From a virus (lineage: Duplodnaviria; Heunggongvirae; Uroviricota; Caudoviricetes): a stretch of 19,994 nt of DNA. The notes beneath the pieces were generated by a model. The model worked only from the letters and a program-made list of their open reading frames with translations, ran no database searches and was not told the origin of the DNA. Made by a program: the position numbers and the translations under genes. Shown piece by piece: positions 7,746 through 7,814 of this stretch (positions are counted from its first letter, which is position 1; each line of letters begins with the position of its first letter). The stretch lies in IMG/VR virus record IMGVR_UViG_2695420538_000013, one strand, 5' to 3'.

Positions 7746-7758
7746 ATTTCCATTTCAC

Positions 7759-7770
7759 GCTCTTTAACAA
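7759..7770 (+). promoter_or_regulatory. boxA-like element (GCTCTTTAACAA) in the nutR position downstream of cro
   Basis: Exact match to the rrn-type boxA core as I recall it (GCTCTTTAACAA), 14 nt after the cro stop, where lambda carries nutR. No adjacent boxB-like GC hairpin is visible. Confidence 0.5.
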
Positions 7771-7814
7771 TAAGCAATCAACTTAACAGTCAATTCAAAC
7801 TAAAGGAGTCAATT

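Follow-up and report, generated by a model that had tools for sequence, protein, structure and literature searches.

The stretch of DNA analysed here, 19,994 nucleotides (nt) of the IMG/VR virus record IMGVR_UViG_2695420538_000013 (hereafter the window), covers the early region of a lambdoid prophage of Escherichia coli that is DLP12-like (Bievrevirus-type). Its cro and cII genes are separated by a spacer that contains a boxA, the sequence bound as RNA by NusB-NusE. This boxA is identical over 13 nt to the boxA of the E. coli ribosomal RNA (rrn) leader and occupies the position of lambda nutR, and it has no boxB, no N gene and no nutL to go with it. Relatives with homologous cro genes carry the canonical arrangement at this position, and the boundary of the immunity module falls at the start codon of cII. 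We consider it probable (roughly 0.6) that the element is an orphan nutR half-site, brought in with the cro cassette of an N-dependent ancestor and dispensable to the present phage lineage. We file it within the known class of boxA elements.

A perfect boxA without partner elements

The spacer runs exactly from the stop codon of a YdaS/Cro-family gene to the ATG of a YdaT-type cII gene (7746-7814). It holds GCTCTTTAACAA at 7759-7770 on the + strand, the sole exact copy of this 12-mer in the window; with the preceding C included, the element reads CGCTCTTTAACAA (7758-7770, +). The 11 nt at 7759-7769, GCTCTTTAACA, are a perfect fit to GYTCTTTAANA, the gamma-proteobacterial boxA consensus derived by Baniulyte et al. 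(PMC5725501), which is expected 0.10 times per window when the window is shuffled. Window and E. coli rrn leader boxA have the 13-mer GCTCTTTAACAAT in common (13/13 identity), which confirms the rrn-type boxA proposed in the initial annotation of this DNA. A 106-nt rrn leader query containing TGCTCTTTAACAAT was matched at 100% in 5426 of 5426 complete E. coli genomes, at a median of 7 places per genome and, in the one copy opened, about 130 nt 5' of a 16S rRNA gene. In the comparison with the rrn leader that had been suggested, the likeness extends to boxA and no further: a GT-rich boxC was not found (no run of at least 7 G/T within 80 nt downstream of boxA), nor was an upstream boxB hairpin, that place being cro coding sequence whose sole hairpin is weak (-4.5 kcal/mol). 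The window element also differs from the rrn leader in lying in a protein-coding operon.

The second perfect match to GYTCTTTAANA in the window, GTTCTTTAACA, is a suhB-type boxA at 18903-18913 on the - strand, antisense to an AraC-family gene of high AT content (18629-19369). Of 200 shuffled windows, 1 had two strict matches; the match at 18903-18913 is probably fortuitous.

The distance from the cro stop codon to the start of boxA is 12 nt, and from the end of boxA to the cII ATG 44 nt (45 nt from the end of the 11-mer). At the equivalent position in lambda nutR, the boxA octamer CGCTCTTA lies 7 nt past the cro stop and is followed 9 nt further 3' by boxB, GCCCTGAAAAAGGGC; the assignment of the element to the nutR position therefore holds as well. 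It has in common with nut sites a boxA sequence of the CGCTCTT(T)A type and a location directly 3' of cro on the pR transcript. With stand-alone boxA elements it shares a perfect consensus and a setting in untranslated, unstructured RNA between a stop and a start codon. The promoter that we assign as pR, from which boxA would be transcribed, would put the element about 265 nt into the rightward transcript. A Shine-Dalgarno sequence for cII, AGGAG, follows at 7804-7808 with 6-nt spacing.

Folding of 7740-7830 gave -4.1 kcal/mol, no better than shuffled sequences (z = 0.16), and the best single hairpin in the 45 nt past boxA reached -0.8 kcal/mol; the boxB stem-loop is indeed absent, as had been claimed. 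The RNA is rich in C relative to G, with a ratio of up to 3.2 in 78-nt intervals starting at 7720-7760. An Rfam scan of the whole window at E values up to 10 returned no match at the spacer; its single confident match was the ALIL pseudoknot of an insertion sequence (IS). A search with the 3' end of cro plus the spacer matched six sister phages only and no put-like RNA. A put antiterminator RNA of the HK022 type, considered as a candidate for the spacer, does not agree with its lack of structure.

The pL side of the window is ordered as a leader (6206-6400), a phi80-type kil gene (5919-6209), gam, bet and exo, and the leader runs directly into kil, leaving no room for an N open reading frame (ORF). 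The ORFs on this side matched none of the N families in Pfam and PHROGs, and an arginine-rich-motif scan of them picked up only an out-of-frame overlap of gam. A tblastn search with 11 N or N-like proteins, lambda N among them, against all six frames of the window gave nothing significant. These results, with Kil as the first pL gene product, bear out the earlier statement that there is no N gene. The same annotation had proposed looking for a second copy of the element near pL; none is there, since neither boxA nor nutL was found at 6200-6430 on either strand with up to 2 mismatches to the 12-mer or up to 1 to YGCTCTTWA.

In sequence (blastn), the pL leader resembles neither the put sites of HK022 and HK639 nor the phi80 leader and nutL; it may act as an RNA antiterminator or as an attenuator. 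It is kept across different immunity cassettes, within this phage group only. Among 39 distinct copies, the first leader hairpin has a nearly invariant 10-base-pair stem and a 32-nt loop with 11 variable sites.

Relatives with a boxA past a homologous cro have complete nutR sites

Homologues of the window's cro (46-87% identity) occur in many lambdoid phages and in 26 GTDB species genomes. The GTDB scan used four closer sequences, and the DNA past the cro stop was read at each of 25 usable loci. A boxA of the CGCTCTTT type lies 7-24 nt past the cro stop in 14 of the 25, and likewise in the Stx-type phage PA28 and the Providencia phage PSTCR7lys; it starts 7-8 nt past the stop in most of these relatives and up to 24 nt in a few. 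All 16 boxA-bearing relatives have a hairpin after boxA (-5.3 to -13.8 kcal/mol, starting 3-18 nt past it), and in several the boxB is recognisably lambda-like (GCCCTGATTCGAGGGC) or phi21-like (TTCACCTCTAACAGGGTGAG). In the aligned sites a second hairpin comes next, and a lambda-type cII then starts about 110-134 nt past the cro stop. On the pL side of most loci with boxA and boxB there is also an N-like ORF rich in arginine (for example, MNRNQRRMAAFNAKKAAEA...); PA28 contains GTAKSRYKARRE and has an annotated N.

The window element resembles these lambdoid nutR sites (the type of P22, phi21 and the Stx phages) in its place on the pR transcript just past the cro stop, in its class of boxA (CGCTCTTTAACA in PA28, TGCTCTTTAATAA in PSTCR7lys) and in following a homologous cro gene, the proteins being 64-87% identical to the window's. 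It differs in having no boxB hairpin, second hairpin, N gene or nutL, in a spacer of 69 nt rather than 110-134 nt, in a boxA that starts 12 nt past the stop rather than the 7-8 nt of most relatives, and in the downstream gene, which is a YdaT-type and not a lambda-type cII. The window's cII is 53-73% identical to those of phi80, mEp237, HK639 and CobraSix. Where such a cII gene is present, boxA was not found in phi80, HK639, Perceval, HK225, CobraSix, mEp237, three Klebsiella phages and the locus L093, and in these lineages the cro-cII junction overlaps or spans about 24-30 nt; boxA thus does not belong to the regulation of YdaT-type cII genes. Judged by its sequence, the window is a hybrid, with the boxA of an N-dependent architecture and the cII of a YdaT-type architecture.

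Other elements occupy the same place in other phages. A GC-rich hairpin, GCCGCC-TAAYC-GGCGGC, with the cro stop codon in its loop (L084, 4459-4476), is also present at the cro stop of L083, L002, L086, L117, L122, L091 and L092; it recurs at the cro-cII junction of phi80, HK639, HK225, CobraSix, Perceval and Klebsiella/Kosakonia prophages despite the differences among their cro sequences, and it takes the place held by boxA in the window. The P22-like Salmonella phage UPF_BP1 (L087), whose cro is 68% identical to the window's and which has the same ACAACC-type operators, carries putL and putR sites nearly identical to those of HK022 at the nutL and nutR positions (about 1465-1560 and 2810-2880). 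The HK022 and HK639 put RNAs are protein-independent antiterminators at the nutR and nutL positions of N-less lambdoid phages. The likeness to the window is one of place: in UPF_BP1, with its related cro and its operator type, an HK022-type putR stands where the window has boxA. The structures differ, put being an RNA of about 70 nt with two stems and the window's spacer being unstructured. A single family of cro genes and operators is thus combined, from case to case, with nut sites, put sites, a bare hairpin or a lone boxA.

The boxA belongs to the immunity cassette

Six sequenced phages (PhiR34_1, PhiR5_1, PhiR47_2, PhiR26_1, IdasGreatGrand and Turner) are 95-99% identical to the window. 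The immunity region with boxA is present in isolates such as PhiR34_1, PhiR5_1, Turner and others, and for PhiR34_1, PhiR5_1 and PhiR26_1, all carriers of the element, the listed host is E. coli K-12 or C. The phages Perceval, 4A7, 1W and 3W are about 94% identical to the window over about 70% of the query; together with others they share cII-O-P-ren and the pL leader-kil-gam-bet-exo block at about 94-98% identity. These sister phages with other immunity modules are sequenced isolates, and the pR operon held in common is about 8 kb long.

In Perceval, which has a different cI and cro, identity to the window begins exactly at the cII ATG. The left side behaves likewise, the pL leader being kept across immunity types from just past the promoter. 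Of 5426 complete E. coli genomes, 1513 (28%) contain the cro-boxA-cII stretch in full; 693 further complete genomes match the query in part, and among the partial matches listed 13 of 13 start 1-3 nt 5' of the cII ATG. Given these homology boundaries at the cII ATG and the pL leader, boxA goes with the cI-cro immunity cassette, not with the conserved operons that the cassette controls. The cassette has an operator palindrome, ATGGTTGTT...AACAACCAT, of a type also found in UPF_BP1; its cI gene is likely to start at the ATG at 7411.

No boxA was found on the + strand of Perceval, the sole sister phage examined in detail, and the annotations read for the early regions of related phages include no N. 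Since Perceval shares the operon without a + strand boxA, the pR operon does not need the element. The initial annotation had itself named a lack of conservation among related prophages as evidence against its inference, and Perceval, which shares the early operons, provides such a case, in one phage and on one strand.

Copies of the module that are at least 98% identical were compared (80 loci from IMG/VR, 6 phages and 59 metagenome contigs). A single change recurs in the spacer, and it lies within boxA: CGCTCTTTGACAA, which breaks the published consensus, is found in 2 copies (of 83 from IMG/VR and phages and 59 from metagenomes). In 59 of 59 metagenome copies, a neighbouring control 13-mer was invariant. 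The natural copies thus give no hint of extra constraint on boxA, in a sample that is at least 98% uniform and has little power. A further variant, at 2647-2658 of L090 (E. coli LWY24), has a 12-nt insertion, ACTGATTAACAG, 3' of an intact boxA, so the spacer past boxA tolerates a change in length; the same copy has a G-to-A change in the cII Shine-Dalgarno sequence.

The element is not conserved upstream of orthologous cII genes in diverged genomes, as judged across YdaT-type cII phages and L093. A pattern search of IMG/VR (CGCTCTTTAACA, 15-45 nt, AGGA, 4-10 nt, ATG) outside this family returned 28 matches, about half of them inside ORFs or with hairpins, a number that by rough estimate is no more than chance. 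Six IMG/VR prophage contigs (L196, L199, L200, L202, L208 and L209) have CGCTCTTTAACAACCGRGAATGCC about 40 nt 5' of a DNA cytosine methyltransferase gene; the sequence just before the motif varies among them, and the motif may lie in the 3' end of a small upstream ORF.

Probable origin as a leftover half-site

Because relatives with the same cro show boxA together with boxB and an N-like ORF, a leftover half-site is the simplest reading of the window. The boxA would have arrived with the cI-cro immunity module of an N-dependent ancestor in which the cro stop was followed by boxA, a boxB hairpin, a second hairpin and a lambda-type cII. The hairpins would then have been lost and the module joined at the cII ATG to a cII-O-P operon of the phi80/HK639 (YdaT) type, with a leader and kil now taking the place of nutL and N in the pL operon. 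Descent by loss of the hairpins is suggested by an alignment of the spacer with the nutR of PSTCR7lys, in which the gaps fall over both hairpins and which 3 of 500 shuffles of the post-boxA sequence score as well. The boxA RNA probably still binds NusB-NusE and could seed the assembly of a host Nus complex on RNA polymerase, the effect of which would be at most to shield the 69-nt G-poor spacer locally from Rho or to change cII translation slightly. That boxA would be the core or a necessary antitermination device of this lineage is most likely not the case. If it is a relic only, the element offers a clean example of lambdoid mosaicism splitting a two-part RNA signal, and a warning against taking any consensus boxA in a prophage for a working nut site.

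Several points weigh against this reading. The spacer, at 69 nt, unstructured and with C well above G, is RNA of the type on which Rho loads, and in lambda the annotated rutA overlaps most of boxA. The sister modules that have no boxA have overlapping junctions or junctions of about 24-30 nt, so that boxA could be kept on account of the long naked spacer. At suhB and at CRISPR arrays, a stand-alone boxA acts with neither boxB nor N (PMC5725501, PMC7665894). The module is also highly successful, with its presence in 28% of complete E. coli genomes and in sequenced phage isolates. A perfect 13-mer is expected of a recent relic and of a selected site alike, and copies that are at least 98% identical do not allow decay and conservation of boxA to be told apart. 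Finally, the PSTCR7lys alignment uses cheap long gaps and is suggestive only.

Alternative readings

A selected, N-independent Nus-factor site in an immunity module present in about 28% of complete E. coli genomes is a tentative alternative, whether it serves to make RNA polymerase Rho-resistant across the moron-laden pR operon or to tune cII translation to the host's supply of Nus factors. In its rrn/CRISPR-type form, which we hold to be possible though unlikely, NusB-NusE with NusA, NusG and SuhB would render RNA polymerase Rho-resistant, so that transcription could proceed past cII-O-P-ren, the emrE/ybcK/ybcL/ybcM moron block and the nin genes as far as Q without N or boxB. A perfect boxA in an untranslated, unstructured stretch with more C than G suits such a role, and at Salmonella CRISPR arrays boxA suffices for anti-Rho activity, a single base change in it abolishing both the SuhB chromatin immunoprecipitation (ChIP) signal and read-through (PMC7665894). 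A simple scan found no strong intrinsic terminator on the + strand from cII to Q, the first lying past Q at 16553-16576, so Rho would be the main barrier, the type of barrier that Nus-boxA complexes suppress; intergenic gaps of 200-460 nt separate the moron genes. Against this stand Perceval, whose same 8-kb pR operon has no + strand boxA, the missing counterpart on the pL transcript, the restriction of the element to one immunity module and its absence from the other YdaT-cII lineages examined, the boxA-breaking variant among natural copies, and the lack of the boxC and upstream boxB of rrn leaders. A mechanism of the suhB type is still less probable: a Nus complex on boxA would loop the RNA back to the polymerase and hinder the ribosome at the cII Shine-Dalgarno sequence, lowering cII translation and causing Rho termination early in cII, and would tie the lysis-lysogeny decision and O/P expression to the supply of host Nus factors. 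The boxA of suhB does recruit Nus factors, repress translation and promote Rho termination, and its repression withstands insertions of up to 100 nt between boxA and the Shine-Dalgarno sequence; lambda N with Nus factors at nutL represses N translation similarly (PMC5725501). In the window the 11-mer ends 45 nt before the cII ATG, inside the 50-nt range used for Nus targets, and the spacer is rut-like; but no other YdaT-type cII gene examined has a boxA, and the cII Shine-Dalgarno sequence, with its 6-nt spacing, is strong and unstructured. The stand-alone elements on which both mechanisms are modelled (the suhB 5' untranslated region, CRISPR leaders, and candidates upstream of prsA, rpsJ and others) agree with the window's in their perfect match to GYTCTTTAANA, in having no boxB and no phage protein, in a place in untranslated RNA no more than 50 nt from a start codon, and in rut-like surroundings, as at suhB (PMC5725501). 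They differ in being conserved across genera and validated by SuhB ChIP and reporters, the window's element being restricted to one phage module that spread recently and pointing by ancestry to a nut site. In the part of the Nus-target table of PMC5725501 that was read, prophage cII/c1 genes are given with a boxA 3 nt upstream and the window's YdaT-type gene is not among them; those entries are probably nutR sites with mis-called starts. Were the window's boxA active, boxA-only Nus regulation would be known from a phage for the first time, and from a module that more than a quarter of sequenced E. coli possess, ST131 among them; the element would stand as a natural intermediate between antitermination by boxA alone, as in cells, and the N/boxB systems of phages.

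What the initial annotation described, a boxA in the nutR position with neither boxB nor N, stands; its further inference does not fare as well. Processive NusB/NusE-dependent antitermination by a non-N route finds no support in the comparison, given that there is no copy at pL, that a single immunity module has the element and that the relatives are canonical, and an unrecognised partner element finds none either, with no hairpin within 45 nt past boxA and no similarity to N. A genuine N-type nut site, with boxB and N too divergent to be recognised or with N supplied in trans by another resident prophage, could appeal to the great diversity of N proteins and boxB hairpins and to phi80, whose N has no N-terminal arginine-rich motif and in whose nutL the annotated 'core' is short and set apart, about 45 nt past boxA. 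The same absence of RNA structure past boxA, the lack of boxA or nutL at pL, the 195-nt leader that leads straight into kil, the negative six-frame search with 11 N or N-like proteins and the lack of an annotated N in the early regions read of related phages leave this reading largely refuted and, in our estimate, very improbable. We give the least credence of all to a chance 12-mer in an AT-rich spacer: the strict match on the other strand, GTTCTTTAACA, does look fortuitous, but 0.10 strict matches are expected per window, the identity with rrn is 13/13, and homologous cro modules carry boxA at the same position (16 related nutR sites).

Other features of the window

Features of the window are collected in Table 1. 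Past cII, the rightward order is O, P, ren, the emrE/ybcK/ybcL/ybcM moron block, the nin genes and a Q-like antiterminator gene (16062-16454). This copy of the prophage is defective, since its integrase gene is split by an IS3-family element; late genes are absent, the phage sequence stopping past Q and the terminator. That intrinsic terminator (16553-16576; 9-base-pair stem, T7 tail), about 100 nt past the Q-like gene, resembles a tR'-type Q target. A lipocalin gene, a 2-thiouracil desulfurase/DUF1722 gene and an AraC-type regulator follow at 16610-19369.

Table 1. Positions of the boxA element, the immunity region and other annotated features in the window
Feature	Position	Strand	Remarks
boxA, CGCTCTTTAACAA	7758..7770	+	Consensus NusB-NusE binding sequence, predicted on pR transcript RNA
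cro-cII spacer, 69 nt, untranslated	7746..7814	+	A27 C15 G6 T21; holds boxA and cII Shine-Dalgarno
cro-like repressor gene, YdaS/Cro family, 76 amino acids	7515..7745	+	Pfam YdaS_toxin 4e-17, P22_Cro; annotated Cro in PhiR34_1
YdaT-type cII, 179 amino acids, phi80/HK639 type	7815..8354	+	Pfam YdaT_toxin 8e-30
cI-type repressor, helix-turn-helix (HTH) and S24 peptidase	6721..7476	-	Pfam HTH_3, Peptidase_S24; annotated cI in PhiR34_1
Operator palindrome and pR-like promoter	7452..7487	+	TTGACT 7459-7464, 17 nt, TAATCT 7482-7487; by eye
pL-like promoter and structured leader of about 195 nt into kil	6206..6431	-	Promoter about 6403-6431; no N gene, no boxA
Integrase halves	1-915 (N-terminal), 2241-2522 (C-terminal)	+	Gene split by IS3-family element
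IS3-family element	orfA 1805-2131, orfB 918-1808		ALIL frameshift pseudoknot 1734-1850, Rfam 120 bits

An oop/M3-like antisense RNA is encoded between cII and O (8355-8466, -) and aligns with the annotated M3 RNA of phi80. It has a promoter-like TTGAAT-17-CATAAT at 8466-8438, followed by a strong hairpin and T-run (-24.6 kcal/mol, z = -3.9). Because this RNA lies between cII and O, the start of O is probably the ATG at 8441 and not the annotated 8351; translation from 8441 begins MANTAEIFNF, which we take to resemble the N-terminus of lambda O.

The inverted repeat TTGATTN6AATCAA, reported as the operator of CP-933P YdaT (PMC9986795), is not in the cro-cII spacer. A perfect match to it, TTGATTTTGGGAAATCAA, lies at 14404-14421 in the ybcM-ninB intergenic region, where it overlaps promoter-like hexamers on both strands; it may be a target of the YdaT-type cII.

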